A DNA stretch of 64,000 nt from Minisyncoccota bacterium (GTDB lineage: Bacteria; Patescibacteriota; Minisyncoccia; Phycocordibacterales; JABAAK01). The stretch spans positions 259,903 to 323,902 of the forward strand of contig OY764332.1 in assembly GCA_963668425.1 (NCBI GenBank), read 5' to 3'. Below are positions 2,305 to 22,277 of this stretch, piece by piece. Position numbers and translations under genes: made by a program. The first letter of the stretch is position 1; each line of letters starts with the position of its first letter. The notes under the pieces are model-generated. The model saw nothing but the letters and a program-made list of their open reading frames with translations, was not told the DNA's origin and searched no databases.

Positions 2305-5300
2305 TTAGTGCCTTTTGTGACTACACCCACCACTTGAGTGGTTGTGTCCGGTACTGCCATAACATGATCCTGACTTCACTCCATCATGCCAATGACAACA
2401 AGAAGAAGGAGAAGAAGATCTACAACTACCACCTGAACAACCGTTAGAGCAGCTTGACGTACTCCATGCCTTTACACATGAGCCACTTCGTGTTGTACAG
2501 TAACACCGTTTAGTGCCGCCGTTATGACACCATGGTGATTGTGAACCGCAACCGCACTCATTGCCGCTACACGAAACAGATCCTCCCCCCGTAGAACACC
2601 CCGAAGTAGTACAAGAGCGAGAAGAAGGTCCTGAAGGAGGAACCACCACAGGAAGCACCGTTACAGGAGCGACTCTGGGTACCTGCGGTAGAGCTGTCAG
2701 AGGTGCTGGAAGTACAACTACAGGAACTCCAACTTCCGTAGGTTCCGTCGACACGGGTGCAAGAAGGTTTACAACTACCATTAGAGCAACCGTTAGGGCA
2801 GTTTGACGTACTCCATGCCTTTACACATGAACCACTTCGTATTCTACAGTAACACTGTTTCGTTTGAGTGCTGGTATTACACCATGGTGATGTGTTACCG
2901 CAACCGCACTCATTGCCGCTACACGAAACAGATCCTCCCCCCGTAGAACACCCCGAAGTAGTACAAGAGCGAGAAGAAGGTCCTGAACAGGAACCACCAC
3001 AGGAAGCACCGTTACAGGAGCGACTCTGGGTACCTGCGGTAGAGCTGTCAGAGGTGCTGGAAGTACAACTACAGGAACTCCAACTTCCGTAGGTTCCGTC
3101 GACACGGGTGCAAGAAGGTTTACAACTACCATTAGAGCAACCGTTAGGGCAGTTTGACGTACTCCATGCCTTTACACATGAACCACTTCGTATTCTACAG
3201 TAACACTGTTTCGTTTGAGTGCTGGTATTACACCATGGTGATGTGTTACCGCAACCGCACTCATTGCCGCTACACGAAACAGATCCTCCCCCCGTAGAAC
3301 ACCCCGAAGTAGTACAAGAGCGAGAAGAAGGTCCTGAACAGGAACCACCACAGGAAGCACCGTTACAGGAGCGACTCTGGGTACCTGCGGTAGAGCTGTC
3401 AGAGGTGCTGGAAGTACAACTACAGGAACTCCAACTTCCGTAGGTTCCGTCGACACGGGTGCAAGAAGGTTTACAACTGCCAGAAGTACACGTCTGTCCG
3501 CTGGGGCATTTGGTGCCGGCGGGGCAGGATTTTTTGCTTCCAGAGCAGTTAATCTCGGAGCAATCTGCCTTTTCTCCTTTTTTGCAGGTAGCAGAAATAG
3601 GAGAATTACAGGAAACAGAGGAAGGACTCGGGCAAGTCCAGGAAGGAGTACGGTATTGACATAATGCAGAGCAAGAATTACTCTTCTTTGTCCAAGAGCC
3701 GTTGTCGCAGGTGTAGGAACAAGAGCCGTTAGAAACGGAACAAGATCCTACTGATTGACCATGACTGGCTGTAGGTAATGAACAATTTGACACTTTTCCC
3801 CCTTGACAAGATGTACGACTGCAACCGCCATTCCGAGACCAAGAGCCGTTGTTGCATGAATATTGACAGGCACCACTATAGCCATCGGCACACGCCAACC
3901 ATTGTGTAGTATTACCATGTTCGACTGCAGGCAAGGGGCAACCTGACACTGTTTTTGCGGGGCAAGATTTTTTTGAGGTTGCGCCAAAACAAGAATTACT
4001 GTTCTTTTTCCAAAGGCCGTTATTATTGCAGGTGTAGGAACAAGAGCCAGTGGAGACACAAGAACCTGCTGATTGACCATATTTGGTTACCGGCAATGCA
4101 CAACCTGTTATTGTTTTGCCCCCGCAAGATGTTTTTACTGAGGATAAACAAGAATTATTGATCTTTATCCAAGAACCGTTATTGCATCTGTAGTTACAAA
4201 AATATACAGGAGCCACAGAAGATTTCTCAATACAACTTCCAGTTTTGCCGTCACCATGTTGTGCTACCCCTAAAGTGCAATTTGACAGTATCTTGGGAGC
4301 ACAGGATGATTGTGCTTTTGAGTCGCAGTGGTACCGTGAGAATTCACATTCTTGACCAGCAGGACAGTGAGAATGTGTGGTACATTCCTTACATAGTACT
4401 CGATTAAGTATGGTCCTATAACATCCGAGGGCACAAGTTTCAACATCTCTTGACTTAACAACAGTACCATTTTTTTTGCAGTTCTGACGGATGTTTCCAT
4501 TATTAGCACAAAAACGACCACCCCAATTTGAGCAAGAAGCGGGACTAGATTTACACGTACCACTTGAACTTGCACAACCGTTAGAGCAGTTTGTCGTAGT
4601 AAACGCCTTTACACACGTATTGTTTTTTTCAACGCAACTACACGATAACGAATTATTACCCTGACAGAATGGTTGTTTTGGTCCACAGTTGCAGTCATTT
4701 TTTCCATCACGGCAATGACGCTCTGGTTTTTTTTCACACTTACCACCCTTACAAGTACCCTCGGAACACTTCGTACCCGTCACGCTTGGTGGAGGACCAC
4801 TACACTGCACGGGGTTACAGTTACTATCTTGTCCAGTGTTACAAGAGGCATAACCTGTCTTACCGCAGTCAATGGAAGATTTTGAAGGGGTGCTCCAAGA
4901 GGCAGGTTTAGAAGGGCAGATTTTGTTTTTTGTACAATCCTTCGTACCCGTCACGCTTGGTGGAGGACCACTACACTGCACGGGGTTACAGTTACTATCT
5001 TGTCCAGTGTTACAAGAGGCATAACCTGTCTTACCGCAGTCAATGGAAGATTTTGAAGGGAGAATCCAAGAGGCAAGTTTAGAAGGGCAGATTTTCTCTT
5101 TTGTACAATCCTTCGTACCCGTCACACTTGGTGAAGAACCACTACACTGCACGGTGTTACAGTTACTATCTTGTCCAGTGTTACAAGAGGCACTACGTGT
5201 CTTACCGCAGTCAATGGAAGATGCCGAAGGGGTGCTCCAATAGGCAGCTCTAGGAGGACAGGATCTACTTGTACAATCTTTCGTACCCGTCACACTTGGT

Positions 5301-7216
5301 GAAGAACCACTACACTGCACGGTGTTACAGTTACTATCTTGTCCAGTGTTACAAGAGGCACTACGTGTCTTACCGCAGTCAATGGAAGATGCCGAAGGTA
5401 GAGCACTCCAAGAGGCAGATCTGGGAGAACAGGATCTACTTCCACAACCCTTCGTACCCGTTACGCTTGGTGAAGAACCACTGCACTGCACGGTGTTACA
5501 GTTACTATCTTGTCCAGTGTTACAAGAGGCACTACGTGTCTTACCGCAGTCAATGGAAGATGCCGAAGGTAGAGCACTCCAAGAGGCAGATCTAGGAGAA
5601 CAGGATCTACTTCCACAACCCTTCGTACCCGTTACGCTTGGCGAAGAACCACCACACTGCACGGTGTTACCACAGCTATCAACACCAGGAATGCAAGATG
5701 CACTCTTAGTAACACCACAGGCAACAGTAGATGCTGCAGGAAGGTCAGTCCAGGAAGGAGTGCGGGGAGTGGTGTTGCAGGCAGGAGTAACAACACAACG
5801 ATCGCCAGAGCATTTTCCACTTGCACACTTCGTACCCGTTACCGTTGGTGAAGAACCACTACACGACAAACCACCACATGAAGGACTTGGGTCATTGCAA
5901 GTTGCCGTCTCTGTAGTACCACAGGCAATGGAAGACGCCGAAGGTAGAGCACTCCACCCTCCATTCACAGGAGAGCAACCTCCCGTAACACAACTCCCCC
6001 CAGAGCATGTTTGCCCTGCGGCGCACGCTGTACCAGTACCAGTACAGGTTCTAGTAGGTCCAGCACCACTACACCCTATAGCAGAACAGGTAGTAGTTAC
6101 TCCAATACGGCAGTTGTCAGAGGCGGTGTTAGGTATAGCAGTACCACAGGCAACAGAAGAAGCACTTGCACAGTCCGGAGCAGGATACCAAGAAGCAGCA
6201 CGGTAGGTACAGGTTAGACTCGGTACAACACTTACGCTACGATACGCAGACCAAGCAGTGCAGGAATGTTTGCCCTGCGGCGCACGCTGTACCTTGTTCT
6301 TGCGCCTGAGACAAACATAGTAGGTACTACCGTTGGTGAGACCACCATAGGACTTGGATCGGGTTGTTTGTGTAGCGTAGGAGCCACCAGCACAGGTACT
6401 GGAGGTGGTAATCTTTGCTTGGTAGTCGTATAAAGCGATGTTGGTGAAACCAAAGTTGGTGGAACCAAAGTCAGCAATCGCTCCAGTGTTTTGTGGGCGT
6501 GTGGAAAAAAGCGATGGCTGTGGTGCAGTAGTGCAGGAGGTAACACAACTCCCCCCAGAGCATGTTTGCCCTGCGGCACATGAGAGGTACTGCGTCTTTT
6601 TGATGACAGATCCTACTCTGCAATAACGAACACGTCTGTTGTTGTCACTGCAAGTGTAGGCATCGTCCCACGTGCAGGGTATGCACCTCTGCTCTGCCTT
6701 GTTACAGAAAGTGGCACCAGAGCAGTGGCTGTCTTGCGTACACTGCACACATCTGCCGATAGCAGTATTACAAGCCGGAGTTGGTACAGCACAGTCACTG
6801 TCACGTTTACAAGGACTGCCAACACACTTAAGCCCCAAAGTGGTCAAAGCAGCAAACTCACCCACACTACAGCAGTCAGCACAGTCGGTGATATAGGTGC
6901 TTGCTCTGTTGGTAAGCGGAAAGCACGAAAGCCCTGTTGGAGTAATCTTTAGAAACTCCCCAGAATTACAGCACTCAGATGGGGTGTCACATTCATTACT
7001 CCATGTGTCAGTCGGTGCGGCGCAGACGATACCTTGGTGGGTGAGTGTGGCATACTCGTCAGTAGCACAGGTTGTCACCACATCAAGAGGGCTTTGACGA
7101 GTGGTCGGCGAGCGTGCCTCTACCGCCACACTTCCGACGAGTAAAGCATGAATAACCATCGCAATAAGCAACGCCGACAGTAGCACAAACCTAGTAGAAA
7201 AAATAAACAAAGGCAT
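2305..7216 (-). CDS. Giant secreted Cys-rich repeat protein (about 1630 aa if continuous) with thrombospondin-type-1-like (TSP1) repeats. An apparent +1 frameshift near 2625-2640 splits it into ORFs 2567..7216 and 2305..2781
   Basis: N-terminal signal peptide (MPLFIFSTRFVLLSALLIAMVIHALLVGSVAVEA). Repeated W-S-x-W-S...C...C-G-x-x-x-x-R/S-x-C modules, for example SWSSCSCTSSTSDSSTAGTQSRSCNGASCGGSCSGPSSRSC. The C-terminal repeat copy differs from the upstream copies by one inserted base, and the sequence continues in the 2305..2781 frame. Confidence 0.7.
2440..3490. repeat. Three tandem 351-bp intragenic repeats inside the giant gene
   Basis: Shadow ORFs 2821..3132 and 3172..3456 are identical. 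The DNA period is 351 bp. Confidence 0.85.
4775..5900. repeat. Six to seven tandem intragenic repeats of about 160-175 bp encoding a repeated 55-57-aa Cys module
   Basis: The motif cttcgtacccgt(c/t)acgcttggtg(g/a)ag recurs at 4775, 4931, 5101, 5279, 5451, 5626 and 5826. Confidence 0.8.
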
Positions 7217-7311
7217 ACTGTGTTTATTGTACTACTGCAAAAATATAAAGAAAGAGATAATGCACATACTGTTCTTTGAGTAAGCAATCTCTATGAAGAA
7301 TGGCTCACCTT

Positions 7312-8523
7312 ACACACAAAGAAAATCATTTTTCCCATTGTTCTCTCGGAATGCCGGATTGTCTCACAATAGCGCGCATTGTTCCGACCAGAATATGTCT
7401 GTCTCCATGACTTGGCACCACAACTAAACCGAACTCTCTTTTGTACCCCTTATACATTGAAAATGACTTCCTCTTGTTTTGAGTGTATCTTTGGTGGTGG
7501 TGTACTGGTTTGTATATATGAAAAAAACGACCAACGTGGTTTGTTGGTCGTTTTTGGTAAGGTTCAGTTGTACTTTACTTTAAGATACTTTTGGCACCAT
7601 TTGTAACGGTTTGGAGCTCTTGCTCGTATGCCGCCGTCTCTGGTTGCTTCATGGACTCCCAGGTTTCCTTCCCTCTCAACATCCCAGTAATAAACGTGAA
7701 ACTCAGCGGCGTTTTCAAGCATGTCTGATTCAGTGTGTTCGCTCTTGTCAAGCGTACCGATCCAGTGTTTGTGCGGAATCTCTGCCAAGTCCTTCTCCCA
7801 CGCCGCCTGGTACTCTTTACCCTCAGGGGTTTTTTCCCAATCAAACAAACTATTGTCACCATGCATAATGGCAACTGCGTGTTGCCGTGCATGGGCGAGC
7901 TCGTGGATGAGGACAGGGTGATAAATTTCACCTTCTTCCTCAGGGAATGCATAGTAGACCCCAACCTCATGCGATCCATAAGTCCCAAAAGTCATTCCTT
8001 CCCCATGATCAACGAACGCAGGACCTATTACAAGAAACAGATCATGCGGGAGTGGCTCAGATTCTAGGATGGAGCGGACTGCATCTGGCCACCGTAGCCC
8101 TACTAGAATCATACCCGGGGCGTTTTGTGGTTGTTCTCGATTTTGATACTCAGCGTCAAAGACCTCGTTCGGTCTTAGTTGCTGAAGTTCGGTAGGACGA
8201 GAGCGATAGGCGATTACCTCTTTTGGTTCAAGGTATGCCCGCTGTACCCGGAGGTACATTTTGTCTCCTTTTACATTTGGAAAGTGGAAGTAGCCACCTT
8301 CGTCGGTAGTTACTTGTTCTTCTTTTCTTGGACCATGTGTTATGGTCACAAGAGCGTTCTGCACTGGTGCTATGTAGTCCCCGCCAACCCATTCGTCATT
8401 ACTAGCATCTGGAACCTTCATACACACCCGACCGACAAAGTCCTCGGGATTACTCTCTGGTGGTGCGTACTCTCTGTACGGACCGGGGAAATCAAGCACC
8501 CACGCTGACTGTGGCAGCCAGTC
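7312..8523. repeat. Right arm of the about 1.2-kb inverted repeat (partner 1..1229)
   Basis: See the left arm. Confidence 0.8.
7521..7558 (-). terminator. Rho-independent terminator downstream of the peptidase gene (minus strand)
   Basis: Hairpin cgaccaac...gttggtcg followed by a T-run on the minus strand. Counterpart of the 987..1021 terminator. Confidence 0.6.
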
Positions 8524-9168
8524 AGATGCCACAGTGCCGTTATAGTATCCGTGGGTGATCGGCTCTTCTACTAGACCTGGTAGCCCTATCGTATCGGACT
8601 GTGTTACCTGCAGTTTCTTTGGGTGATGGTAAAACTTTGTGAGCGTGTTACCATCAAGGTCTGCTGATAATTTGCCGACCATGATGGACACCGCTTTGTC
8701 TGGCATTACGTACCTACAAATGTAGTCGTCTGTGCCAGAACCTAATGGCTTTGCATAGCCATGGATCAATTTTTCTTTGGGCGAGGTAACCTTGAAGCGT
8801 TCCATCGGGCTACCTCTTTCTTTGTACCAAAGCACCGGTCTACCGCTACCCTCGCCTGTAACAATATGCTCCATTGGCTCAGAGAAAACGATCTTAATAA
8901 AAACTGTTTCTCCTGCTTCAGCCGATTGTATCTCCTTGGTGAGTTTCCAGTCACTGTAGTAGCCGACTGATATTACCCTCGGAGTACCTATCGCCACGTT
9001 CATTGGAGCACTTGGAGCGTTTTCTGGAGTTCTTAGAGAGCCCAGCAAACCAAGTGTTTCATTATCGTCCAATACCAGTCCGTCTGGCTCCTCACCACAA
9101 CCCATGAGCAGAGCAATGGTTAGCACTGCAATTGCAATGTTCGCCACATGTTTCAATACATGTTTCAA
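7564..9168 (-). CDS. Lipoprotein zinc metallopeptidase (HExxH) with a carboxypeptidase-regulatory-like domain, 534 aa
   Basis: Lipobox signal (ALLMGCGEE). HELAHARQH motif. Beta-sandwich TITHGPRKEEQVTTDEGGYFHFPNVKGDKMY resembles the CarboxypepD_reg-like fold. Confidence 0.7.
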   Translation of the reverse strand: MKHVLKHVANIAIAVLTIALLMGCGEEPDGLVLDDNETLGLLGSLRTPENAPSAPMNVAIGTPRVISVGYYSDWKLTKEIQSAEAGETVFIKIVFSEPMEHIVTGEGSGRPVLWYKERGSPMERFKVTSPKEKLIHGYAKPLGSGTDDYICRYVMPDKAVSIMVGKLSADLDGNTLTKFYHHPKKLQVTQSDTIGLPGLVEEPITHGYYNGTVASDWLPQSAWVLDFPGPYREYAPPESNPEDFVGRVCMKVPDASNDEWVGGDYIAPVQNALVTITHGPRKEEQVTTDEGGYFHFPNVKGDKMYLRVQRAYLEPKEVIAYRSRPTELQQLRPNEVFDAEYQNREQPQNAPGMILVGLRWPDAVRSILESEPLPHDLFLVIGPAFVDHGEGMTFGTYGSHEVGVYYAFPEEEGEIYHPVLIHELAHARQHAVAIMHGDNSLFDWEKTPEGKEYQAAWEKDLAEIPHKHWIGTLDKSEHTESDMLENAAEFHVYYWDVEREGNLGVHEATRDGGIRARAPNRYKWCQKYLKVKYN

Positions 9169-9506
9169 TTCTGTATCCTCCTTTTTTTACTGTGAAAGGT
9201 CTGTATTCAACGCCTCAAATCCTAACTTATACTATACAACAATATTACTCTCTCGTCAAATATCTTTTCAGGCATTTTTCAATACCTGATCTAGTAACTA
9301 GTATACTGCATTTCATACTATCTATGTCCTTTTTGTCAACATCCATAGTGTATATCTATTAACCTTACAGCAAAACACTTTACATGTACTATGAAAATAA
9401 ACATCGTAAAAAACCCTTATCTTAAAAGGCATTTGAGCATTTTCCTCTTTATTTTCATATAGCACCTTTGAAAATATAATTTTCTTGTTCTTGCTAGGAC
9501 TTATTC

Positions 9507-9728
9507 CTATCCTTGCACTAATGCATACCCACTACATGAGGAACCTCCATAATCAGGAGAAGGGTTGGTGCAGGTAACGGTCTGTGTAGTACCACAGGCA
9601 ACAGAGGAATCCGAAGGAAGAGATTTCCAGGAAGCAGAAGAAGTAGAACAGGTGCGGGTGTTTGTGCAAGGGGTAGAACAACTCCCCCTGAGCAAACACC
9701 AGCAGAACAGTAGGTGCCAGTACCACAA
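9507..9728 (-). pseudogene. Isolated fragment of a TSP1-like Cys-rich repeat module (remnant of a giant-protein paralog)
   Basis: Translation SWKSLPSDSSVACGTTQTVTCTNPSPDYGGSSCSG matches the repeat modules of 2305..7216 and 37564..40293. It has no signal peptide and no flanking coding sequence. Confidence 0.5.
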
Positions 9729-9970
9729 CTTGGACTATTGCTTGATGAGCAGCTGATGGAGGTGCCGTCAGTATCAATTAGAAAACACCATTGACTGATG
9801 CGATCAACACTAACTTCTCAAAATCTTCAACTGATCCTCAGATGCTTTTCTGATAACTCGCTTCATCATTCTTTTACGTTTTTTTGAACTCATATTTGCA
9901 AAATCTCTGGAAGCCTGCTCTGCAGGTGATATAGTTTCATTATTTTTATTTTTCCAGAAAAAAGAGAAAA

Positions 9971-10693
9971 TCATGATATTATACGCAGTATTTCTTCGCT
10001 ATCACTATACACTTTAGTGTACATCTTTTTTATATAGTCATCAACATTTTGTACATTAAACTCAAACTTCTCCTGCATCGCTTCGTTTCCTTCAGAAACT
10101 GTCTTCAAGACAAAATGAATCTTGATTTTTTCTTCAAATGTATTTTTAATTTCATTCACCACCTCCCGAGAACCGATAAACTGCCTGGCAAATGATTCCT
10201 TTGGTACTACTCTTCCTTCCACTTGTTCTCGTTTTTTTACAAATTTCCACGCACTCTTCGGTTCTTGATACACAAAAAACACTTCCACCCGGCACCCTCT
10301 TTTTAAAGATCGTTCTACATTACTTCTCGCTTTCTTAAAATTTGAAAATGTTGAATCTAACACAAAGTTATACCCCTTCTTGAAAATATGATCCAAGACC
10401 TTTTCCACTCCCAAGGATGCCGCTCCGTGATATTTCTCCGCATTATTCCCCGAGTATCCAGGTAACAACGACTTAATCACATCTTGGTCAATGTGAACAA
10501 AGGAGGTGTCAGAAATCTCTTCTATCAGACGTCTCGCTGTCTCAGTCTTTCCTGCACCTGGAGAACCAGACATAAACAACGCATTCTTTGTTTTCACTGA
10601 CTCACAATCCTTGCATACTTCTTCTATAATCTGATGAGCATTCTTTTTGACCCAATCCTTCAACGATTCTTCTGCTTGTTCCATGCTATCCAT
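9971..10693 (-). CDS. Zeta-toxin-like P-loop kinase (zeta toxin / AAA_33 superfamily). The true start is likely the Met at 10693; the 10786 start overlaps a peptidase-gene remnant
   Basis: Walker A motif FMSGSPGAGKTE near the N-terminus. Size and layout typical of zeta/PezT-type UNAG kinases. No epsilon-like antitoxin ORF nearby. Confidence 0.6.
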   Translation of the reverse strand: MDSMEQAEESLKDWVKKNAHQIIEEVCKDCESVKTKNALFMSGSPGAGKTETARRLIEEISDTSFVHIDQDVIKSLLPGYSGNNAEKYHGAASLGVEKVLDHIFKKGYNFVLDSTFSNFKKARSNVERSLKRGCRVEVFFVYQEPKSAWKFVKKREQVEGRVVPKESFARQFIGSREVVNEIKNTFEEKIKIHFVLKTVSEGNEAMQEKFEFNVQNVDDYIKKMYTKVYSDSEEILRIIS

Positions 10694-10803
10694 TATCCCA
10701 TACTCCTTATAACTCTCATACCATCTCGTGATCTGAATCAAACATGCTTGAAAACGCGGCTGAGTTTTGTGCCATGCATTGGACATTACAATGGAAAAAT
10801 AGT

Positions 10804-10930
10804 GCGCAAGGAATTTGTAAAAATACCCTTATTTCATAGGATATTTTGTCAAAATTCATTCCTTGTATATTGTAATTGACAAGGAATGCTACTTACTTGT
10901 ATATCGTAATATACAAGGAATTATTTTAGG
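10804..10930. promoter_or_regulatory. Conserved divergent promoter/operator cassette with the palindrome TTCCTTGTATA-N-TGACAAGGAA; copy 1, between the zeta-like kinase gene and Fic-1
   Basis: An about 130-bp stretch near-identical to 20677..20838. It contains the inverted repeat ttccttgtatattgtaattgacaaggaa plus a degenerate second copy. Confidence 0.55.
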
Positions 10931-11006
10931 TAAGGATATATTGCACTTTACAAAAAACAGATTTACGGCATTGTTTTAGTTTATATTGCGAGTTTTTGCC
11001 TAACAT

Positions 11007-11017
11007 TGTGATATAAT
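11007..11017 (+). promoter_or_regulatory. Extended -10 promoter element TGTGATATAAT upstream of Fic-1
   Basis: TGn plus TATAAT. The same element sits upstream of Fic-2 at 21035..21045. Confidence 0.4.
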
Positions 11018-11037
11018 ATTATTATGAGAAAAACATA

Positions 11038-12177
11038 GTGGGAGAACGCATATTTGCGTTTTTGGACATAATTGGATATAATTGGACATATATACCTATA
11101 TCCATATGTATGCAAGAAGATAGATTTATTAAACGAATCCCCATCACTTCTGAGATTATGCAAAAAATCTCTCGCATTGATGCTTTTAAGGGTTTTTGGG
11201 AGGGTGGACTGCGTTTGCATCCACGTGTTTTGACACAGCTGAAGAAGTGGGTTATCATCACCTCAACAGGTGCATCAACGCGTATTGAGGGGTCAAAAAT
11301 GAGCGATGCAGACGTTACAATGTTTCTACGTGGTTTACGTGTAAAGTCACCAAAAAATAGGGATGAGCAAGAGGTTGCGGGGTATGCTGACCTTGCCGCA
11401 AGAGTATTTGACAACTATACAATATTACAACTGACAGAAGGATATATTTTGCAGTTTCATAAGATTTTATTGCAGTTCTCAAAAAAAGATCAAAAGCATT
11501 TTGGGAAGTATAAAGCATCAGACAACATTGTCATTGCCCGCACTGATGATGGTGAGGAGAAGGTTCTTTTCAGACCAACTCAACCATACTTAGTAAAAAA
11601 AGAGATGGATGATGTGCTTGAGTGGACACGATCAACGCTTGCATCTGAAACACTGCACCCTATTCTTGTTATCTGTAACTTCATTTTTGAATTTCTTGCG
11701 ATTCACCCGTTTGTAGACGGTAATGGACGACTTTCTCGTATTTTAACAAATATGCTCCTGTTGCAGGCAGGATATGCTTATGTACCGTATGTTTCTTTAG
11801 AAGAAATTATTGAAAATCATCAGGTAGCATACTATAGGTCACTACGGGAAACACAAGTCAAGCATAAAACAGGGCATGAAGATATCGCTCCGTGGGTACA
11901 CTTTATGCTTGATATACTACTTGAACAATCTGAAAAAGCACAATCTGTTATGCAATCCGAGCATCCGGAGAAAATGCTATCAGAAAGCCAAACGACTATA
12001 TATACTCTGTTCACCGCCGACGAAGAGCTTGCCATTGCTGATATTGCTATGAAACTTCGTGATACTATTCCTCGGACAACTATAAAGCAAGCTGTGTTCC
12101 GCCTTATGCGACTTAATTTGTTGGAGCGAATCGGGAGCGGGAGAGGGACGCGATACCGTCGTATTATTCAACCATAG
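11038..12177 (+). CDS. Fic family protein (AMPylation-type Fic motif HPFVDGNGRLSR) with a C-terminal winged-helix region
   Basis: Canonical HPFx[DE]GNGR motif. N-terminal IEGS region as in the Fic_N domain. GTG start at 11038. A homologous ATG at 11024 is followed by a stop after 4 codons. Confidence 0.8.
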   Translation: MGERIFAFLDIIGYNWTYIPISICMQEDRFIKRIPITSEIMQKISRIDAFKGFWEGGLRLHPRVLTQLKKWVIITSTGASTRIEGSKMSDADVTMFLRGLRVKSPKNRDEQEVAGYADLAARVFDNYTILQLTEGYILQFHKILLQFSKKDQKHFGKYKASDNIVIARTDDGEEKVLFRPTQPYLVKKEMDDVLEWTRSTLASETLHPILVICNFIFEFLAIHPFVDGNGRLSRILTNMLLLQAGYAYVPYVSLEEIIENHQVAYYRSLRETQVKHKTGHEDIAPWVHFMLDILLEQSEKAQSVMQSEHPEKMLSESQTTIYTLFTADEELAIADIAMKLRDTIPRTTIKQAVFRLMRLNLLERIGSGRGTRYRRIIQP

Positions 12178-12384: not shown

Positions 12385-13875
12385 TTACTCAGACACTATC
12401 ACTACCCCCCTTGCCTGCGGGTTGATGTGGTCGTGGTACTGCCACTCCCCTACTTCGTTAAACCGAAACGCATACACCGCACCGGTACCCATTGCCTCAC
12501 AAGCATCAAAAATCATCGCTCGTTCATCGGTGGCACATTTCATGATATTTGATCCGGGATACTGCTTGTGTGTTGGGTGAAGATTTGCTGCAGGCCAGAA
12601 CACCTGATCTTCGTTCCTCCACATTACCACCTGCCCGGGTTGTATAGACACTGTGTTTGGTTGGAACTGTCTCTCCCGATACGTAATAACCTCCGCATCA
12701 GACCCGATAGTGTCAGGAATCATGCCTCCTCTGGGAAATGCAAAAGACACTGCGCTATCTTTTGTTGACATCTCATCATGCGTATGCTCGGTTTCATCAT
12801 GGTGCTCACCACCTTCCTCCGCACCTCCAAACAAACCAGCAAAGAACGATTTGATGCCATCAAGCAATTTCTGCAACCATGATCTTGAGACATCATGTTT
12901 CTCATCTACCATTACCTCCTCAGACAGTGCCTTGACAGCGCTGTGATGATGCTCAATGCCGGAGCGTGCGTTGCGCACTGATTGCCGACACACTTCCTCA
13001 TACACCCCTGCACCGACACACTTATCAGCAATAGGAAACGACTCGTCGCCAAATCGATGTAATAGATACTTTCCATGGTTTTTGTAGCATTTCTCACGGT
13101 ACTGCTCCTCTATTGTGTTGCACGGAGCAGATGCATCATCGTCAATGAAGCCATCACCGCCACCAGACGCAATATACTCATTCACATTCTCCATAAACAC
13201 ACCATCCCAACAATGCGATTGAAACTCCGGGGGTAATGCGTCGCACACCGCAAGCGCAGGAGCGAGTACGTGGTTGTTGCGTTTCATAAACATATGCCCC
13301 ATTTGGTGGTAGCATGCCTCTTGCTCGGCAACATCGGCATCTGTGGTAGTGACACAAATGGTTTCCGCGAAAAAATTATCTGGCTCAACACCATCAGCAG
13401 TTGAGGAGAATGCCTCAAAGAAGCCATATGCACATCCGTAGTCAAAATCATTCCCACACAACCCAAACTGGTTCTCTCTGTCTGCAAGCAGTTGCTCTCC
13501 AAGCACACGCCCTATTCTCTGAGCGAGTGCATATGCATCAACATCAAATGCTTGCACAGACACCAAGTCAGCCAATACTGCCTTTGCAAACTTTGGACCA
13601 GATCCCGCTATCGCCGCATCAACAATATCTTCCATGCATTCCTCTACCACACCACCTTCGCAAAGAGCAAGATAGCATGCCTCCTGCTCACCCGATGAGA
13701 TCACATGACAAATATTTACCTCAGATGGCAAGTTGTCATGTTTTTCATCACCATGCGCAAACACCACATTTACAGAAGAGAGCATGCCAAGCAAAAAGAG
13801 AAGAAAGGCAGTGATAACAATAGTACGTGTTGCCATGTTAGTAGCAGTATATAGTAATACAGCATTCATACACAA
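12385..13875 (-). CDS. Secreted Cys/His-rich modular protein (one M module, a His/acidic linker, and a cupredoxin-like C-terminal domain), 496 aa
   Basis: Signal peptide (MATRTIVITAFLLFLLGMLSSVNVVFAHG). The M module (ACYLALCEGG...FGLCGNDFDYGCAYGFFEAF...CYHQMGHMF...GVFMENV...PCN) is shared with the two downstream genes. The C-terminal V-x-W-x-NED...HPTH...YHDH...GVVIV follows cupredoxin spacing. Confidence 0.6.
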   Translation of the reverse strand: MCMNAVLLYTATNMATRTIVITAFLLFLLGMLSSVNVVFAHGDEKHDNLPSEVNICHVISSGEQEACYLALCEGGVVEECMEDIVDAAIAGSGPKFAKAVLADLVSVQAFDVDAYALAQRIGRVLGEQLLADRENQFGLCGNDFDYGCAYGFFEAFSSTADGVEPDNFFAETICVTTTDADVAEQEACYHQMGHMFMKRNNHVLAPALAVCDALPPEFQSHCWDGVFMENVNEYIASGGGDGFIDDDASAPCNTIEEQYREKCYKNHGKYLLHRFGDESFPIADKCVGAGVYEEVCRQSVRNARSGIEHHHSAVKALSEEVMVDEKHDVSRSWLQKLLDGIKSFFAGLFGGAEEGGEHHDETEHTHDEMSTKDSAVSFAFPRGGMIPDTIGSDAEVITYRERQFQPNTVSIQPGQVVMWRNEDQVFWPAANLHPTHKQYPGSNIMKCATDERAMIFDACEAMGTGAVYAFRFNEVGEWQYHDHINPQARGVVIVSE

Positions 13876-13931
13876 ATATTATACAGAACATTTCCTTCCT
13901 ATACCCATCTATCCATAACTCCTTCTGCACT

Positions 13932-15179
13932 TTATTCAGAAACTACCACCACACCGGTCGCCCGTGGGTTGCTATGGTCGTGATAGCGCCACCGCCCAGG
14001 TTCAGTAAAGACAAATGAATACTCAGTGCCATAGGGTAACTCTTTGCATGCATCAAAAATACTTTCCTGTTCTGCTGTCCCACATTTTTTAATATCTGAC
14101 CCAGGATATGCTGCATGAGTTGGGTGGATGTTGGATGCTGGCCAAAACGACTCTTCAGTGTCTTCATTCACCCACGTTACTTCTTGCCCGACTGCTATGT
14201 GTATAACATCTGGCATATACTCCCCTCCTTGGTAGCGTATCACTGCGTTTTCAGTCTTCTGAACGGTAGAGTAAGGTGTCTGTGTAGTACCGACATCCGT
14301 AACAGATAACGAAACAGCTTTTGGTGTTTTGCGTTCCATACATTCTGACTGATATCGATCTGGTAATGTCCGGCAGAAATCAGGTAACCCATCTGTTGAG
14401 ATAACCTCTGTCGCCTGTGTCATAAGACGATCATAACAAATTTCTTCAAAAGAAGAATCCGAAGACAGCGCGCAAAATGCGACCGCGCCCGTCTCCTGTG
14501 ATGGATCCCAAAATAAATTATTCAATGCCCCCTCCAAACACCCATTTCTACCGGGTACATACGCTATACGCATACACACCTTCCTACTTTGCACTGGATC
14601 CAGCAGCATCTGACCGGACACCGTCCGCCCCATGCTATGAAAACAAGCAAACCGAAAATGCTCCGGTGCATCAGCACACGCGATACCAACTGCATCAAAA
14701 TCACCGAGCAATCGGTGCATATGATCGGTTTGTAGCCAATAACACTCATGCTTATACTTCTCCTTTACTGCATTACACGGATAGTGTGGGTCATCATTTA
14801 GATACTGCGTATAGTGGACACCACCTTCTGCTTGCTCATCTTGCACGATACCACCGACAACATTCTCCATGAACACGCCGGAATAACAGGATTTCTGATG
14901 ATACTGTTGACGAATTAAATCACACGCCTCCAGCGCATCATATATCTTATAGTCATACCACGCCATCAGCCCATGTCCAATACCGTGAATACACTGGTGC
15001 ATATGAAACCTATTCCCTGCCTCATCACCACAGAGTGTATGCAAACTGTCAATTAAGTCAGTAGTGCCATTTGCCGCAAAAAATGCCTCAGTTGCTCCGT
15101 GTCGGCATCCAGAGTGACACTCTATCCCACAACTCTTAAACGACTCACCACCGAACAAATCATACGCCCGCCGACCCAT
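13932..15179 (-). CDS. Secreted Cys/His-rich modular protein, paralog (M module plus cupredoxin-like domain). It probably starts at about 15349 with a frame disruption near 15180-15250
   Basis: Same M-module motifs (CIHGIGHG, GVFMENV, PCN) and the same C-terminal domain (TWVNEDTEESFWPASNIHPTH...RYHDHSNPRATGVVVVSE). The ORF 15122..15349 encodes a signal-peptide-like N-terminus (MGKDVRFAVFVLAIFCGAMA) in another frame. Confidence 0.55.
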   Translation of the reverse strand: MGRRAYDLFGGESFKSCGIECHSGCRHGATEAFFAANGTTDLIDSLHTLCGDEAGNRFHMHQCIHGIGHGLMAWYDYKIYDALEACDLIRQQYHQKSCYSGVFMENVVGGIVQDEQAEGGVHYTQYLNDDPHYPCNAVKEKYKHECYWLQTDHMHRLLGDFDAVGIACADAPEHFRFACFHSMGRTVSGQMLLDPVQSRKVCMRIAYVPGRNGCLEGALNNLFWDPSQETGAVAFCALSSDSSFEEICYDRLMTQATEVISTDGLPDFCRTLPDRYQSECMERKTPKAVSLSVTDVGTTQTPYSTVQKTENAVIRYQGGEYMPDVIHIAVGQEVTWVNEDTEESFWPASNIHPTHAAYPGSDIKKCGTAEQESIFDACKELPYGTEYSFVFTEPGRWRYHDHSNPRATGVVVVSE

Positions 15180-15437
15180 CTCATGCGCTCTGTTGTGGCA
15201 ATCAATCCCCTTTGAGTATTCAAGTCAGGGGTTAGTGCTGTAGTCGGCTTCTCCTGCCACCCGTCAAAACTAAACATTGCCATAGCACCACAGAATATAG
15301 CCAACACAAAAACAGCAAAACGGACATCTTTACCCATGTGGAGCAACATACTTCACCCCAAACAGCATTACTGCCTTAGATTTGACTTATCTGCATACAG
15401 ACATCTTGATACATCCCTTTTGGTATTTGACACCTAT

Positions 15438-18400
15438 CTATTTTTTAAACATGTTGATCAGGTATCTCACTACCCTGCTGAACAGATTGAGATGATCTTC
15501 ATACTCTTCCTCATTGATACGATTCACCTCATCGGTGCTTGCAGTCCATTCAGCCACAAACGTAACACTTTCTTCACCATTATGATATGGATGCAAGCAA
15601 TCATTATAATATATCTCCGGCACCTGATTGCAAAATTTGTACAGATCTGTCTCATCTTTCACCTTACCCCCGACATTCCTCCCGATGACCTTCCAGCATC
15701 TACTCCTATATCTTTCGTTCAATTTTCCGCAAAATTCCTTTGTGTTCTCTATCCCATAATAAGTAAAATTCTGATCAATTGCCGGTTCGTAGCATCGCAT
15801 ATGATATTCTTCGCTAAATTGATTACAAATGAAAATGGTTTTGTCTATGAGGTTTCCTGAAATACTGTCATCCAACAACACATCCTGGGTACTTGCATAG
15901 ATAGACTGTGCGCCAAGGTTATATACACAGTCCTGCACATAGCCGTCTTCAACCTTGTTGCACATATCAATCATTTTTTTTAAATCCCATTGTAGTGCAT
16001 ACAACCAATACGATACTTGAGATTGATAGCAGAGTGTTTTATACCGCTCATTAAGATTGTTACATGGAGCAAAAGGGTCTTCAGTGCGAAACCCATTATC
16101 AATTTCATCATTTGTTTTCCTGCCTTGTGCACCACTTACATTTTCCATAAATACTCCACTATAGCAATCCCATTTTCGATGCTCCCTCTCCAACAAATCA
16201 CACTGTTCTAATGGCTTATACAGTCCATAACTGTAATTCATTACCAATGCGTGACCTGATCCGTGATAGCATGCAGTTTTTGCATATGGTGGAGTGTCCG
16301 GCATATTACTACAGGTATTTTCTATGAACTCGGCGGGGCTAGGAACAACAGCAAGACCGGCTTCAAAAAATCCATGATGGCAACCGTAGTCAAAATCAAT
16401 TGGACACTTGAGAAATGCTTCTCCGGTTAACCCAAATTTCTCTCCTGTTGATCTTCCTATAGTGTGTGTTATTTGATGTGCAGATGACGGCTCAAACAAA
16501 AACTCTCCCTCCCATGTCATGTCATGTAGTGCCCTGATGGACTCTTTCGGACCTGATCCAAAAACTAGTTGGGTAACAATTTCTTCTGCACAGAGATATC
16601 CTGGCTCATATTCACACAACGATGCGTAGCAACCTGCTCTCCCCACATCCAAAGCTGCACACTCCTGCGCACTATCAAATAAATTTTTGTTAAACTTTTC
16701 TTCCTGCAGGTGTTGCTGCCAATCCTGTGCAGATGCCGGTAAAGTAACTGCGCTTACCGCACTCTTAACTGCATCTAAAATACTTTGTGTGATTTTTTTA
16801 AATAAAGAAACCAGGTTTCTCTCCTTCTCTATTTTTGTTACTGGTAATTCTCCATATACATCTTCACCATGCTGAATATCTGCACTTACGTTATTATCAA
16901 GTCGATATCCAAACAAACATTCATTTCTATACTCATCCGGCACATCTACACACTTTTCTGTTTTCTCCTCTTCATGCACAACCATATCCTGTAACCTTCT
17001 ACCCATCTCTCGATAACAATTTCGTTCATACTTTTTATCAATTTTTACACAAAACTCAGATGTTTTTTTTGCTCCGTAGAATATGAAGGTTTGATTTATT
17101 GCCCAGAGATAACATGTCTCACGGTACTTTTCTGGAAAATGATTGCATAGATATATTGTTTTATCTATAAAGTTTCCTTCTATGTGTGGCATCAGTTTTT
17201 CTTGAATCTCTTTATACATCCCATACCCTCCAACGCCATGTGCACATGATTCTGCCTCTTCACCGGCGTCTAGACATGTATCAACGACACCTTGAATATC
17301 ATAGTCAAAATACCATGCTAAATATGGCAAATGTGTTTCATAACATACATCTCGATATCCGTACCCCTCTCCATCCTCCACCAATGTGTCGCATGGAGCG
17401 TGTGGATTATTTTCATCAAAACTGTTATTTTCTGTATATATCTCTTGTATCCTTCCTGATACAAAAGCGTCTACGTTTTCCATGGTCACGCCGGAGAAAC
17501 ATGTAAATGGCTGTGGTAACGCCTTGCAAATATCCAGTGCCTCATAGAGATCATAGCTTGTGTTCATGAGTATGCCGTGACCAGCACCATGATAACAATT
17601 CACCTTATCAAGTGACGGCTGATCGGGCAAGGTTTCACATATCTGTTTTACTGCCTCAGCAGGTGATTGTGCCTCTACAAGCGCAACCTCAAGAAACCCA
17701 TGGTGGCAACCTGAATCAAATGATGTTGGACATCTCAGAAATGCTTCTCCTGAACCATTGAACCTTTTTGCTGTTTTTCTCCCAACAACATGTGCAAGTC
17801 CATGCCCCTCATCTGCCGAAGAGAATGAAAAGGGGGTTGATGGTATAATTTCTCTGAGTATCTGCATACCTAACTCCGGACCATTGTGTTCAACTGCTGT
17901 TTCTACTATTTTCTCTGCACACAAATATCCAGGTTCATATTCACACAGAGAAGCGTAGCATTCCGCACGACCATCCTGCTGGTTGATGCACCGCTCAATT
18001 GCGAAAAAACTGGTATCAGGTGCATCAACAGAATCCTTGACACTTTGTGCAGAAACAGGTCCAGCAAATAGAGCGGAGAGGTTTCTGAAAAGGGTAACAA
18101 AAAAATCTTTAACCTTTATGAGTAAGTAGTCATTCTGATCAACATCATCTGCCATCGCCTTATTTACAGCAGTGGTGGCACTTTCCTCAAAATCTGAAAT
18201 AACAACCTCAGCATGCCTTGTATACGGATCTAAACAATCCTGCTGATATATGGTAGGGATCTCGGCACATGCTGACTGTTTCACCTCCTCACTCCCTAAA
18301 TGATTTAAATATGAGCCGGCTTGTTTGAAACATGCTGCTCTGTGTCTCATTTCAATGCTACCACAAAACGTGCTAACTCGATGCATGGAGGGGTAATCAA

Positions 18401-19766: not shown

Positions 19767-20483
19767 CTAGAGGACATCCGGGCCTCTTTCGCTTTGCAAT
19801 GATACCGCTGGTATAGAAACACATAAGCGACTCATATCACAGACACTTTTAGCGCGTTGAATAATATCAAGCATCTGTATTGGCAAGCAGTATCTTGAAT
19901 CTACTTGCACAACATGCGTGGGGAGAATTTTTGGTAAATTAATTTGATGCCTGTGTGAAAATATATCTTCTTTAGTGCGTGAAAGAGTTTTCTCAGTAAG
20001 ATATTTTCTCAAATTATCTGAATCTTTTTTGTTTTCAGCATAGCGGTCTATAATCAACTCTATCGGCTTTCCGAATGTAAATAATAATTCTTTTGCTGAT
20101 ATATACTCCAATGCTTTCTTTAAAACAAAGTTCCTGAACCAAAGAGGGTTTCTTTGGTACTTACCATCTCTGAGATATGGACCGATATATTTTGTTTTAT
20201 CTATCATCATTTCATAAAATTGCACATCGTTCAGATATGGTATTTTTTCTACAAGGTTTTTTAAATTTTTTCCACTGAGTTTTTTCAATTCTTTTTTATG
20301 ACCGTTAAAAAATTTAAACCCTGCAATGAGGTATTCTATATCTCCAACCCCTTGTTCAGTCGCTATGCCTATATTTATAGTAAAATGCTGACTTGATGAC
20401 CGATGTGCAACTGGATCACCGGCATCACCGCTCTCATCTATAAACACAAAAAGTTTTTTGGCTTTACTGTAATCCATATTCAT
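19767..20483 (-). CDS. DUF3800-like protein (N-terminal FIDESGD motif), 238 aa
   Basis: KLFVFIDESGDAGD near the N-terminus matches the DUF3800 (PF12686) signature as recalled from memory. No other recognizable domain. Confidence 0.55.
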   Translation of the reverse strand: MNMDYSKAKKLFVFIDESGDAGDPVAHRSSSQHFTINIGIATEQGVGDIEYLIAGFKFFNGHKKELKKLSGKNLKNLVEKIPYLNDVQFYEMMIDKTKYIGPYLRDGKYQRNPLWFRNFVLKKALEYISAKELLFTFGKPIELIIDRYAENKKDSDNLRKYLTEKTLSRTKEDIFSHRHQINLPKILPTHVVQVDSRYCLPIQMLDIIQRAKSVCDMSRLCVSIPAVSLQSERGPDVL

Positions 20484-20676
20484 TCATTATACTTTGCTCG
20501 TTTTTTTGTGACACGCACTAGTATACCTCCTGAAACTTAATACTTTTTGTTTGAACAGTAGGAGTGCGTTATTCCGAAAGATTGCCATATTATACCCGCT
20601 TTTTGTCAAAAAAGCGGGTACAAAATTTGTAATACATAAAAAAACGGGTATACCATGTGTACTGTAGAAGACAAAT

Positions 20677-20838
20677 GCGCAAGGAATTTGTAAAAAACTC
20701 CTTATTTTATAAGATATTTTACCAAAATTTATTCCTTGTATACTGTAATTGACAAGGAATGCTATTTCCTTGTATATTGCAACTGACAAGGAATACTACT
20801 TCCTTGTATAGTGCAATTGACAAGGAATTATTTTAGGC
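20677..20838. promoter_or_regulatory. Divergent promoter/operator cassette, copy 2 (three TTCCTTGTATA-N-TGACAAGGAA palindromes), between the DUF3800 gene and Fic-2
   Basis: Near-identical to 10804..10930 but with an expanded palindrome array at about 20732, 20766 and 20800. Confidence 0.55.
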
Positions 20839-20888
20839 AGAGATCTATTATACTTTACAAAAAGTAGATATGTTGTATTATCTTGGTT

Positions 20889-21010
20889 TATATTATTAGT
20901 TTTGCTTAAAAGTTGCAATATGAAAATTTATATTATTAGTTTTGCTTAAAAGTTGCAATATGGAAATTTATATTATTAGTTTTGCTTAAAAGTTGCAACA
21001 TGGAAATGTA
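20889..21010. repeat. Three tandem 40-bp repeats (tattattagttttgcttaaaagttgcaatatg(a/g)aaattta)
   Basis: Direct repeats with the block tattattagt at 20891, 20931 and 20971. Confidence 0.8.
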
Positions 21011-21050
21011 TATTGCAAGTATTTATCTAAAATTGTGATATAATAGTACT

Positions 21051-22220
21051 ATGATAAAAACAAGAGAAAAGGGATATGGTGATTTTACGGCAGGAATACA
21101 TAAAAAACACTTTTATAACAAAGAGTATGCATATGAGAGTTTTGTTCCACATTCTGTGAACAGAGAGTATGCTTTTCAAGATTCCAGAATACTTACCCTC
21201 CTTGAAGAGGCGACTAGACATCTTGCGGAATTAAACGCATATTCTGATTTGGTTCCTGATGTTGATTTCTTTATTCAAATGCATGTACGAAATGAGGCGG
21301 TGAAATCAAGTAAAATTGAAGGCACACATACAGACATTAGTGAAGCTGTTCTCTCAGAAAAAGAGATTGAGCCAGAGAAAAGAAATGATTGGCAGGAGGT
21401 TCAAAATTATATAACCGCAATGAATTATGGAATAAAAAAGTTGGAGAAACTGCCTTTGTGTATGCGTCTGTTGTGTGAGACGCATGCAAAGCTGATGCAC
21501 GGTGTTAGAGGGGAGAACAAACAGCCGGGAGAGGTGCGATTAAAGCAGAACTGGATTGGTGGTGTCAGTATTAAAACAGCGTCTTTTATACCACCCCATC
21601 AGGACGATGTCCCCGAACTGTTGAAAGATTTAGAGAAGTTTTGGAATGATAAAAATAATCTTATCATGCCGGATCTGATAAAAGTTGCTATTTCTCATTA
21701 CCAATTTGAAACAATTCATCCGTTTAATGATGGTAACGGCAGGATAGGTCGTATATTAATAGTACTCCATCTTATGCAGATGGGTATATTAAGCAAGCCA
21801 ACGCTTTACCTATCTGATTTCTTTGACAAGCACAAGAGTGCCTACTATGATGCGCTGATGTTTGTAGGAGAGAGAGATGACCTTGATCAATGGATACTCT
21901 TTTTTCTGTCGGGCGTTGTTGAAACTGCAAAAAAAGGAAGAAGTATTTTTCAAGACATTATTGAGTTACGGAGTCAATATGAACAAAAATTGCTTAACCT
22001 TGGCGGTCGCGCGAAAACAGCGAATAAATTACTTCAGTTTTCCTTCTCTCATCCTGCATTTGATACTGTGACAGTATCAGATTACCTTAATATATCACGC
22101 AGTTCAGCAAACATACTTGTGAAACAGATGTCAAGCATGGGCATATTAAAAGAATCAACTGGTTTTTCAAGGAACAGAATCTTTACATTACATCAATATC
22201 TTGACCTGTTTAACACGTAA
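21051..22220 (+). CDS. Fic family protein (HPFNDGNGRIGR) with a C-terminal winged helix. The ATG is only 5 nt after the TGTGATATAAT -10 element, so the mRNA may be leaderless
   Basis: Canonical Fic motif. IEGTHT in the N-terminal domain. Promoter element at 21035..21045. Confidence 0.8.
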   Translation: MIKTREKGYGDFTAGIHKKHFYNKEYAYESFVPHSVNREYAFQDSRILTLLEEATRHLAELNAYSDLVPDVDFFIQMHVRNEAVKSSKIEGTHTDISEAVLSEKEIEPEKRNDWQEVQNYITAMNYGIKKLEKLPLCMRLLCETHAKLMHGVRGENKQPGEVRLKQNWIGGVSIKTASFIPPHQDDVPELLKDLEKFWNDKNNLIMPDLIKVAISHYQFETIHPFNDGNGRIGRILIVLHLMQMGILSKPTLYLSDFFDKHKSAYYDALMFVGERDDLDQWILFFLSGVVETAKKGRSIFQDIIELRSQYEQKLLNLGGRAKTANKLLQFSFSHPAFDTVTVSDYLNISRSSANILVKQMSSMGILKESTGFSRNRIFTLHQYLDLFNT

Positions 22221-22277
22221 TATATCTCTGTATATACACCGGCAATGCATGAGGATAATGTATTGTATTGAAAAGAT

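Follow-up and report, generated by a model that had tools for sequence, protein, structure and literature searches.

The stretch analysed here, 64,000 nt of contig OY764332.1 from a Minisyncoccota bacterium (the whole of it is called the window), is chromosomal, with an RNase P RNA and nine tRNA genes. It contains an intergenic cassette of about 130–160 bp that occurs at 10803–10930 and 20676–20838, the sole two sites in the window, each time between a minus-strand gene and a plus-strand Fic gene. The cassette is marked by 28-bp palindromes of the form TTCCTTGTATA-N6-TTGACAAGGAA with a period of 34 bp. With up to two mismatches allowed, TTCCTTGT-N12-ACAAGGAA was found five times in 64 kb, against 0.02 by chance, starting at 10859, 10893 (one mismatch), 20732, 20766 and 20800; Tandem Repeats Finder (TRF) returned the 34-bp period with 2.9 copies at 20732–20828. 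BLAST alignment of the two cassettes gave 86.6% identity over 119 nt (10803–10921 against 20676–20794), and 10859–10996 matched 20766–20903 at 79.7% over 138 nt. A preliminary description of the window had reported this repeat and read it as a divergent promoter, one switch controlling interchangeable effector genes. The palindromic cassette is real; the reading of it is supported only in part by the analyses below.

The identities proposed for the four adjacent genes were borne out by Pfam. To the right of the first copy, Fic-1 (11110..12177, plus strand; frame open from 11038) encodes a class II Fic protein with a C-terminal tail resembling a winged helix-turn-helix (wHTH). It matches Pfam Fic (4.6e-18), PDB 8uqu (4.4e-41) and PADLOC SoFic (8.1e-41 over residues 51–349), and an identical protein, P0121, begins at the methionine of 11110. 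To the right of the second copy, Fic-2 (21051..22220, plus strand) encodes a full-length SoFic-like class II Fic AMP-transferase with a C-terminal wHTH. It matches Pfam Fic_N and Fic (1.4e-18) and PADLOC SoFic (8.3e-117 over residues 27–388), and its residues 26–384 align with SoFic 9–359 (PDB 9tch/3eqx, ~1e-34; E = 6.7e-35). The active-site motif HPFx[D/E]GN[G/K]R is intact in both proteins (HPFVDGNGR in Fic-1, HPFNDGNGR in Fic-2), as is the inhibitory-helix motif (S/T)xxxE(G/N) (STRIEG and SSKIEG, respectively); the corresponding motif of CccR is S59ARIEG (PMC9755527). When the C-terminal tails were searched in isolation, Pfam returned wHTH matches below threshold only. The cores of the two proteins share 32% identity over 105 residues.

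On the minus strand, the first copy is preceded by a gene for a zeta-toxin-like kinase (9971..10693; Pfam Zeta_toxin, 6.7e-40; P-loop GSPGAGKT). The mechanical open reading frame (ORF) extends to 10786, and the start is probably 10693 or 10684. Alignment to a homologue at a locus from a related genome (such loci carry L numbers here, this one being L007) begins at residue 39, with 59% identity, and the ATG at 10693 follows an AAGGAG at a distance of 9 nt; together these place the start at 10693, leaving 110 bp between it and the repeat. The stretch 10719..10692 holds an extended −10-like box, TG-GATAAT. The minus-strand gene at the second copy (19767..20483) matches Pfam DUF3800 (1.2e-08) and encodes a protein unrelated to the zeta-like kinase. 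It has a promoter-like site, GTGTCA-17-TATAAT (10/12), at 20514..20486, and is separated from the cassette by ~190 bp that include a GC hairpin, ACCCGCTTTTT-GTC-AAAAAGCGGGT, at 20596..20621.

Each cassette contains a composite element, here called the A-element. In copy 1 (10803..10920, plus strand) it consists of a left half-site, GCAAGGAAT, at 10805–10813, one palindrome of 11-6-11 geometry, AAAATACCCTT-N6-TAGGATATTTT, at 10820–10847, and two 28-bp palindromes at 10859–10886 and 10893–10920. In copy 2 (20676..20827, plus strand) the half-site (20678–20686) is followed by a degenerate palindrome, AAAAACTCCTT-N6-TAAGATATTTT, at 20693–20720 and by three 28-bp palindromes. Two promoter-like sequences are embedded in copy 2, TTGACA-18-TATATT (20749–20778) and CTGACA-18-TATAGT (20783–20812). 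The equivalent in copy 1 is degraded (TTGACA-N18-TATATC), and one arm of its second 28-bp palindrome is mutated to TTACTTG. Decayed junctions on the plus strand follow the A-elements at 10921..10981 and 20828..20886; they are homologous (57/76 identical), and the first is also homologous to L022 7845–7894 and L024 4843–4865.

The homology between the two sites reaches further to the right than the cassette first described, so that 10803–11192 corresponds to 20676–22419. Segments 10982–11035 and 21009–21062 are 85% identical over 54 nt by BLAST, an alignment that spans the promoter, the ATG and the next 9–12 coding bases. In copy 1 these bases form a stub of Fic-2, four codons reading ATG AGA AAA ACA TAG (11024..11038, plus strand), which aligns to the Fic-2 start ATG ATA AAA ACA AGA. 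The stub ATG at 11024 lies 6 nt after the −10, the same spacing as in copy 2. The reciprocal situation is found at the other end of Fic-2, where 22286–22419 matches 11058–11192 at 82.5% over 137 nt. This region (plus strand, alignments A2 and A5) comprises the element found upstream of Fic-1, here called B, and a Fic-1-type pseudogene stub of ~130 bp (~35 codons), in which the start ATG has become AGG, an upstream ATG is followed directly by TAG, and an indel breaks the frame. A similar remnant occurs at L007, where the order is A-ATPase-B-Fic-1 stub: 11052–11156 matches L007 4476–4580, 3′ of the ATPase gene there, at 85.7%, and the stub reads MHEDRCIKRIPITPEIV*. The reciprocal stubs indicate that both Fic coding regions were once present in the duplicated segment. 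In essence, therefore, the two cassettes belong to a longer duplication that included coding regions, an outcome that the preliminary description had itself named as incompatible with its reading.

The minus-strand genes both lie outside this duplication. Between the zeta start and the cassette is a 35-nt fragment (10733..10767, plus strand) resembling the 3′ coding end of ORF 7564..9168 (534 aa); it is 94% identical to 7733–7699 and 88.6% identical to 804–838, and codes for ..SDMLENAAEF.. The recurrence of this coding fragment indicates a putative scar of local rearrangement.

To establish where the A-element belongs, related genomes are informative. When one genome per species was scanned for exact matches, the palindrome turned up in three genomes of Kaiserbacteria/Paceibacterota, the group that also holds the closest DNA relatives of the window, with one locus in each; one of the three is the complete 661-kb genome OZ241963. 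The palindrome is therefore not a generic site. At all three loci, the A-element lies immediately 5′ of an ORF starting MDTKTREKIE or MNIETREKIE. Four further loci with the same arrangement were reached through homologues of the encoded protein, giving seven related loci in total. The protein is an AAA_14 + DUF4143 ATPase by Pfam and matches the PADLOC candidate system PDC-S01 (2e-31). The A-element was found directly upstream of its gene and in the same orientation in L001, L003, L007/L010, L013, L014/L015 and L024, and in a diverged form in L016 and L017. The arm-junction pattern, run against metagenomes and viral sequences, turned up nothing beyond a duplicate of L007 and, behind phage tRNA genes, two hairpins attributable to chance, and no relatives of the ATPase were found in viral contigs.

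Alignment of nine A-elements (alignment A3) revealed a fixed architecture: the left half-site GCAAGGAAT, the palindrome AAAATACCCTT-N6-AAGGRTATTTT, then 2–3.5 of the 28-bp palindromes, which in the relatives take the form TTCCTTGTATA-N6-TATACAAGGAA with a period of 34 bp. With linkers of 6 bp as well, successive half-sites are spaced by 17 bp and point in alternating directions. The 11-6-11 palindrome always lies 39 bp ahead of the first main palindrome, as seen also in L003, L014, L016 and L024, and could serve as a binding site in its own right or as a promoter. An extra copy of the AAAATACCCTT type was noted at L024 8660, and another version lies 5′ of the Fic-2 orthologue in L025. The window copies share both sequence and architecture with these elements, including the half-site, the AAAATACCCTT palindrome at 39 bp and the 34-bp period.

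Across 21 palindromes, positions T2, T5, T6, G7 and C22, A23, A24 are invariant, and symmetry is retained through double-sided changes in seven of the 11 pairs. The TTGACA variant of the right arm, combined with TATACT in the next left arm, forms a near-consensus promoter with a 17–18-bp spacer. TTGACA-17/18-TATACT is present in 8/10 ATPase upstream regions, with the −10 ending 9–51 nt before the ATG, which itself lies 1–30 nt past the last palindrome arm. The anatomy of the A-element is thus that of a predicted operator array laid over a promoter, and the palindromes are probably operators. The overlap of the arms with the −35 and −10 boxes makes an operator role, as first proposed, plausible; its assignment to the window genes is not supported, as the element is, judged by its sequence context, native to the AAA_14/DUF4143 ATPase gene. 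It also appears directional. At L003, L013 and L014 the opposite side is occupied by a bcp/AhpC-TSA gene that is co-directional, and the divergent gene of L007 uses a predicted 11/12 promoter of its own, which lies beyond the A-element. These arrangements argue against the divergent promoter of the preliminary description, in keeping with the separate promoter-like sites of the zeta-like and DUF3800 genes.

The window itself appears to lack the cognate gene. A tblastn search found no AAA_14/DUF4143 ATPase gene in the 64 kb, neither array precedes one, and none of the best 120 ATPase homologues lies on the window's own 696,550-bp contig. With no ATPase gene behind either array, the window copies appear to be orphaned. 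A weak candidate for a relic is TTTACAAAAAACAGATTTACGG at 10947–10968, which may derive from the first codons of a lost ATPase gene.

The two Fic genes, in turn, are each associated with elements of their own. Upstream of Fic-2, a third element, here called C (20887..21050, plus strand), contains 40-bp units repeated 3.2 times at 20887–21014 with 96% matches (TRF); in the window, these units are decayed forms of a TATATTGCAAGTTT-N6-AAACTTGCAAYAT palindrome. An extended −10 follows at 21036–21044, with the ATG 6 nt further. A single decayed C unit (10982..11023, plus strand) remains in copy 1, with the extended −10 TGATATAAT at 11009–11017. C arrays are also present 5′ of the Fic-2 orthologues P0243 (L024, 81%) and P0244 (L025, 72%; from the genome of L003). 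In both, 40-bp units of TATATTGCAAGTTT-N6-AAACTTGCAAYAT lead to an extended −10 and, a few bases on, the ATG; in L024 the palindrome is 16-6-16 and 94% complementary. TACCCG..CGGGTA hairpins, similar to that beside DUF3800, also lie 5′ of the Fic-2 orthologue in L024.

Upstream of Fic-1, the B-element (11058..11109, plus strand) contains a 10-bp direct repeat, TTGGAYATAA, 2.9 times at 11062–11090 (TRF). It lies between the Fic-2 stub and the Fic-1 ATG. The direct repeats are of the form GGAYATAATT; the motif GGATATAATTGGATATAATTGG is found just ahead of the start in the Fic-1 orthologues P0122 (L022, 85%) and P0125 (L023, 68%), and in the window it occurs at 11064 and 22292 alone. The B-element is also conserved in the L007 stub. 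The TTCCTTGT palindromes, by comparison, are absent upstream of the Fic-2 orthologues in L024 and L025 and of the Fic-1 orthologues in L022 and L023. These results bear on the extended −10 said to be common to both Fic genes. The sequence TTGTGATATAAT is indeed identical at 11006–11017 and 21033–21044; it belongs, however, to the predicted Fic-2 promoter, and in copy 1 precedes only the stub.

Starts lying 6–9 nt past a predicted −10, with no Shine-Dalgarno sequence, were noted at 21039–21053, 11012–11026 and L007 2965–2982. This suggests that the Fic-2 and ATPase mRNAs may be leaderless or near-leaderless. The N-termini of Fic-2 (MIKTREK) and the ATPase (MDTKTREK) are alike, and an in-frame fusion of Fic-2 to the ATPase N-terminus was considered; it was rejected on the evidence of the closest Fic-2 orthologues, in which N-termini of the MxKxRK type are common and a C-element of their own is present. 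In L024, on an 847-kb contig, a second Fic gene (minus strand), the Fic-2 orthologue, an AlbA_2/HATPase_c_4 gene and the AAA_14/DUF4143 ATPase gene are clustered at 3575–10365. All of the encoded proteins are of wHTH type or defence candidates, and the repeat modules between the genes occur in another order, C then A.

Taken together, the two cassettes are probably paralogous, differently decayed copies of one longer defence-neighbourhood segment, in a Kaiserbacteria-like genome of the candidate phyla radiation (CPR). Starting from the homologies, the stubs and the observed tie of each element to one gene family, we infer the rest of this history as follows. The ancestral row would have been A-(ATPase)-C-Fic-2-B-Fic-1. 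The ATPase ORF would have been lost and the remainder duplicated, after which Fic-2 was lost from copy 1 and Fic-1 from copy 2. In such a scheme, the zeta-like kinase and DUF3800 genes are, to judge from their positions, bystanders not linked to the cassette. Signs of decay are seen in the TTACTTG arm and the TATATC −10 of copy 1 and in the degenerate C-type left arms in the window. The A palindromes of this genome would be orphaned or residual and would at most modulate read-through into the Fic genes.

In the relatives, a dimeric DNA-binding protein on the 28-bp palindromes would occlude the ATPase promoter, with TTGACA of a right arm serving as the −35 and TATAnT of the next left arm as the −10. 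Each Fic gene would be driven and auto-repressed from its own element through the wHTH of its own product, by analogy with two characterized proteins. CccR, a wHTH-Fic protein of Yersinia pseudotuberculosis, binds palindromes near its own −35/−10 (PMC9755527), and the target of SoFic, from Shewanella oneidensis, is the 100 bp directly 5′ of its own gene (bioRxiv 10.64898/2026.07.09.737422). As each of the two recognizes palindromes or promoter DNA at the gene that encodes it, the natural inference is that C and B mediate auto-repression of Fic-2 and Fic-1, respectively.

The protein acting on the A palindromes could be the ATPase itself. Its AlphaFold model (predicted local distance difference test, pLDDT, 88.4) comprises an AAA+ core, a winged-helix segment at ~294–359, ordered helix-helix-helix-strand-strand, and a beta-rich C-terminal domain that corresponds to DUF4143. 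The top Foldseek match was Orc1/Cdc6 on origin DNA (2qby_A), with STAND/NLR, ORC and DnaA structures close behind, all at template modelling (TM) scores of 0.34–0.41. The winged helix of the ATPase is therefore a candidate binder, one that we hold tentatively and with the doubts slightly the stronger. Strict co-evolution of the palindrome with ATPase divergence was considered and rejected, as the L017 array mixes arms of the TTCCTTG- and TTTTTG-types; these mixed arms leave no clean evidence for the ATPase as the binder.

Several observations weigh against this account. The winged helix of the ATPase may instead be the non-DNA-binding winged-helix domain (WHD) of a STAND/NOD module, with NLR and Apaf-1 structures ranking beside Orc1. 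When the window copies are compared, 49/53 palindrome-arm positions agree, against ~73–75% at surrounding positions, which suggests that the window palindromes may still be in use and not mere relics. L025 carries the left part of an A-element 5′ of its Fic-2 orthologue; the juxtaposition of A and Fic-2 is then old and could be functional. If decay were independent, it would be a coincidence that the Fic-1 stubs of L007 and of window copy 2 end at similar places. A test for relics of the ATPase 5′ end gave p = 0.002–0.01 for L022 and L024 and a non-significant p = 0.07–0.2 for the window copies. The ATPase search covered the 64-kb window, and an ATPase gene or more A arrays may be present elsewhere in the genome. 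Finally, the promoters and operators are predicted at the level of consensus matches, in a phylum whose promoters are little studied.

Part of this evidence speaks for the reading originally offered, in which the switch is live and shared, with one regulator on the 28-bp palindromes co-regulating the zeta-like gene with Fic-1 and the DUF3800 gene with Fic-2 as a modular toxin/defence regulon. The arms are almost perfect in both copies and better kept than their flanks, the near-consensus promoters of copy 2 point at Fic-2 with no terminator-like site between, and all of the genes are toxin- or defence-like; the partial A-element of L025 could be counted here too. Against this, the element belongs to the ATPase in the relatives, where the upstream neighbour is co-directional or has its own promoter, and the Fic orthologues in L022, L023 and L024 have no such palindromes and have repeats of their own. 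The zeta-like and DUF3800 genes stand outside the repeat with promoter-like sites of their own, and no evidence of the co-regulation proposed for them was seen. In copy 1, moreover, the embedded promoter and one arm are mutated, and the stubs show that duplication of a whole segment accounts for the common promoter with no need for a promoter module to move. We consider a live shared switch unlikely.

An altered form of the same idea, which we judge distinctly unlikely, would have the A array and the Fic-1 leader delimit a Kaiserbacteria hotspot in which single-gene defence systems (PDC-S01-like ATPase, SoFic-like Fic) are swapped or lost and the palindromes act as a live operator, for the Orc1/STAND-like ATPase or another factor, coupling the expression of whichever defence gene follows. 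If this were so, the idea of a single switch serving interchangeable effectors would hold in altered form. It draws on the same conservation of the arms, on the partial A-element of L025 and on the varied content between A and B.

A hotspot could also work by exchange of cargo, with A on the left and B on the right enclosing a site at which single-gene defence systems recombine, and with the A, C, B and AAAATACCCTT modules shuffling as propagating promoters. The same A/B flanks do enclose three different contents, namely the ATPase (L007), Fic-2 (copy 2) and nothing (copy 1). C precedes A at L024 8750–8915 and follows it in the window, the 11-6-11 geometry resembles Xer/dif-type core sites, and promoter reuse is documented in prokaryotes (PMC3488235). 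The ORF list and Pfam, however, gave no recombinase, transposase, terminal inverted repeats or target-site duplications within ~8 kb of either copy. The single locus of the exact palindrome in OZ241963 also argues against it, tandem recombination sites would be unstable, and the loci are too few to tell swapping from deletion. Cargo swapping is, on this evidence, decidedly improbable. The sites also differ from those of integron or Xer/dif cassettes in that tandem sites are present on one side only, and no recombinase domain was found in the seven ORFs scanned with Pfam across ~7.5–22 kb (9971..10786, 11038..12177, 19767..20483, 21051..22220, 7564..9168, 12385..13875 and 13932..15179).

Action as RNA or single-stranded DNA, with the palindromes forming hairpins of a 5′-untranslated region, a small RNA or a cruciform in place of protein operators, is a very remote prospect: arm complementarity does survive double changes and adjacent arms can form alternative hairpins, but the best promoter lies inside the array, so that most palindromes would be upstream of the predicted start and untranscribed, the outer bases of the arms keep a fixed sequence beyond mere pairing, the common TTGACA variant introduces A·G and T·T mismatches (pairs 9 and 10) in place of G·U pairs, and Rfam gave no match at gathering score in either region, with nothing or hits far below threshold in E-value mode. 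A chromosomal origin or iteron function was also considered and rejected, as the contexts vary (bcp, trigger factor, FtsK, tRNA synthetases) and include no dnaA/dnaN-type neighbourhood.

Comparison with known systems places the duplicated segment among documented processes. As with CccR and SoFic, Fic-2, which aligns with SoFic over its full length, has palindromic repeats within ~160 bp upstream that overlie the promoter and are kept in orthologues. CccR uses one split palindrome, AGATAATCAT-N26-ATGATAATCT, whereas the Fic-2 repeats are 40-bp tandem units at which binding is predicted. The 28-bp A palindromes, unlike the CccR and SoFic sites, are not the Fic-associated ones. PADLOC matches both Fic proteins to SoFic and the relatives' ATPase to PDC-S01, itself a candidate system, and a defence role in CPR is putative; a small AS1-like anti-Sofic gene is known (PMC12249575).

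Putative mobile promoters (PMPs) are defined as sequences of >50 nt at ≥80% identity whose flanking coding sequences do not align, the gene not being co-duplicated (Matus-Garcia, Nijveen & van Passel 2012, PMC3488235). The cassettes resemble them in being intergenic DNA at least 80% identical before non-aligning genes of one genome (86.6% over 119 nt). They differ in that the stubs reveal duplication of promoter and coding sequence together, a case that the PMP pipeline excludes, and the conserved blocks fall partly outside its −150..−50 window. The ATPase and its array recall archaeal Orc1/Cdc6 and the origin recognition box (ORB) repeats, in that an AAA+ protein with a winged helix is encoded directly downstream of inverted repeats and an AT-rich stretch. 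The likeness is limited by the low TM-scores, which STAND/NLR structures equal, by the C-terminal DUF4143, classed as PD-(D/E)XK (PMC3424549), and by ordinary chromosomal contexts. The copy 1 minus-strand gene shares the Zeta_toxin kinase domain and P-loop with zeta/PezT modules; in zeta/epsilon (PezAT) systems the antitoxin gene directly precedes the toxin gene within one operon, whereas here the ~110 bp between the zeta start and the cassette have no antitoxin-size ORF and hold the unrelated gene fragment. Zeta homologues in L007 and L022 stand alone and in other orientations, and the gene opposite Fic-2 differs by genome, being a second Fic gene in L024 and a ParA/CbiA-like gene in L025.

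The locus is a fresh example of known processes, namely duplication of a segment followed by reciprocal loss, and putatively auto-regulated defence loci of a single gene. It is also a cautionary case, in which a common promoter before different toxin-like genes mimicked a modular regulon that duplication and reciprocal loss explain better. What it draws attention to is a conserved and unusually regular operator-like array tied to uncharacterised AAA_14/DUF4143 (COG1373, PADLOC PDC-S01) ATPases of CPR bacteria. The separate repeat arrays before two SoFic-like Fic families fit binding of wHTH-Fic proteins to their own promoters and would extend it to CPR. The A, B and C sites provide concrete DNA probes for protein binding.

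Other repeats were observed elsewhere in the window. Between the two cassettes, three adjacent paralogous genes on the minus strand (12385–19436) encode secreted, Cys-rich proteins (496, 415 and 1332 aa). The largest is an internal triplication with repeats spaced by ~1.3 kb; at the C-terminus of the 415-aa protein a match to Cupredoxin_1 stays below threshold (E = 0.0059), and the 496-aa protein has no Pfam match. To the left, a 1549-aa ORF (2567–7216, minus strand) is composed of tandem coding repeats of 171 bp and 351 bp (families D1–D3, D6 and D7). An intergenic 138-bp tandem repeat is present 3.5 times at 48076–48560, each unit containing two TGTTTCACGTGAAACG palindromes, a TTTCTATGTGAAACAC box and a promoter-like TTGATTTCTTGTATAATAAT box. 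At 36428–37013 and 40555–41165, tandem repeats of 198–212 bp directly follow tRNA-Ser(gct), and tRNA-Arg and tRNA-Ser(cga) enclose a perfect 209-bp duplication. The units of these tRNA-adjacent repeats end in the tRNA-3′-like GTTGGGATTCGA and may be integration scars. A tRNA-Ile with the anticodon TAT, unusual in bacteria, is predicted at 59769–59842.

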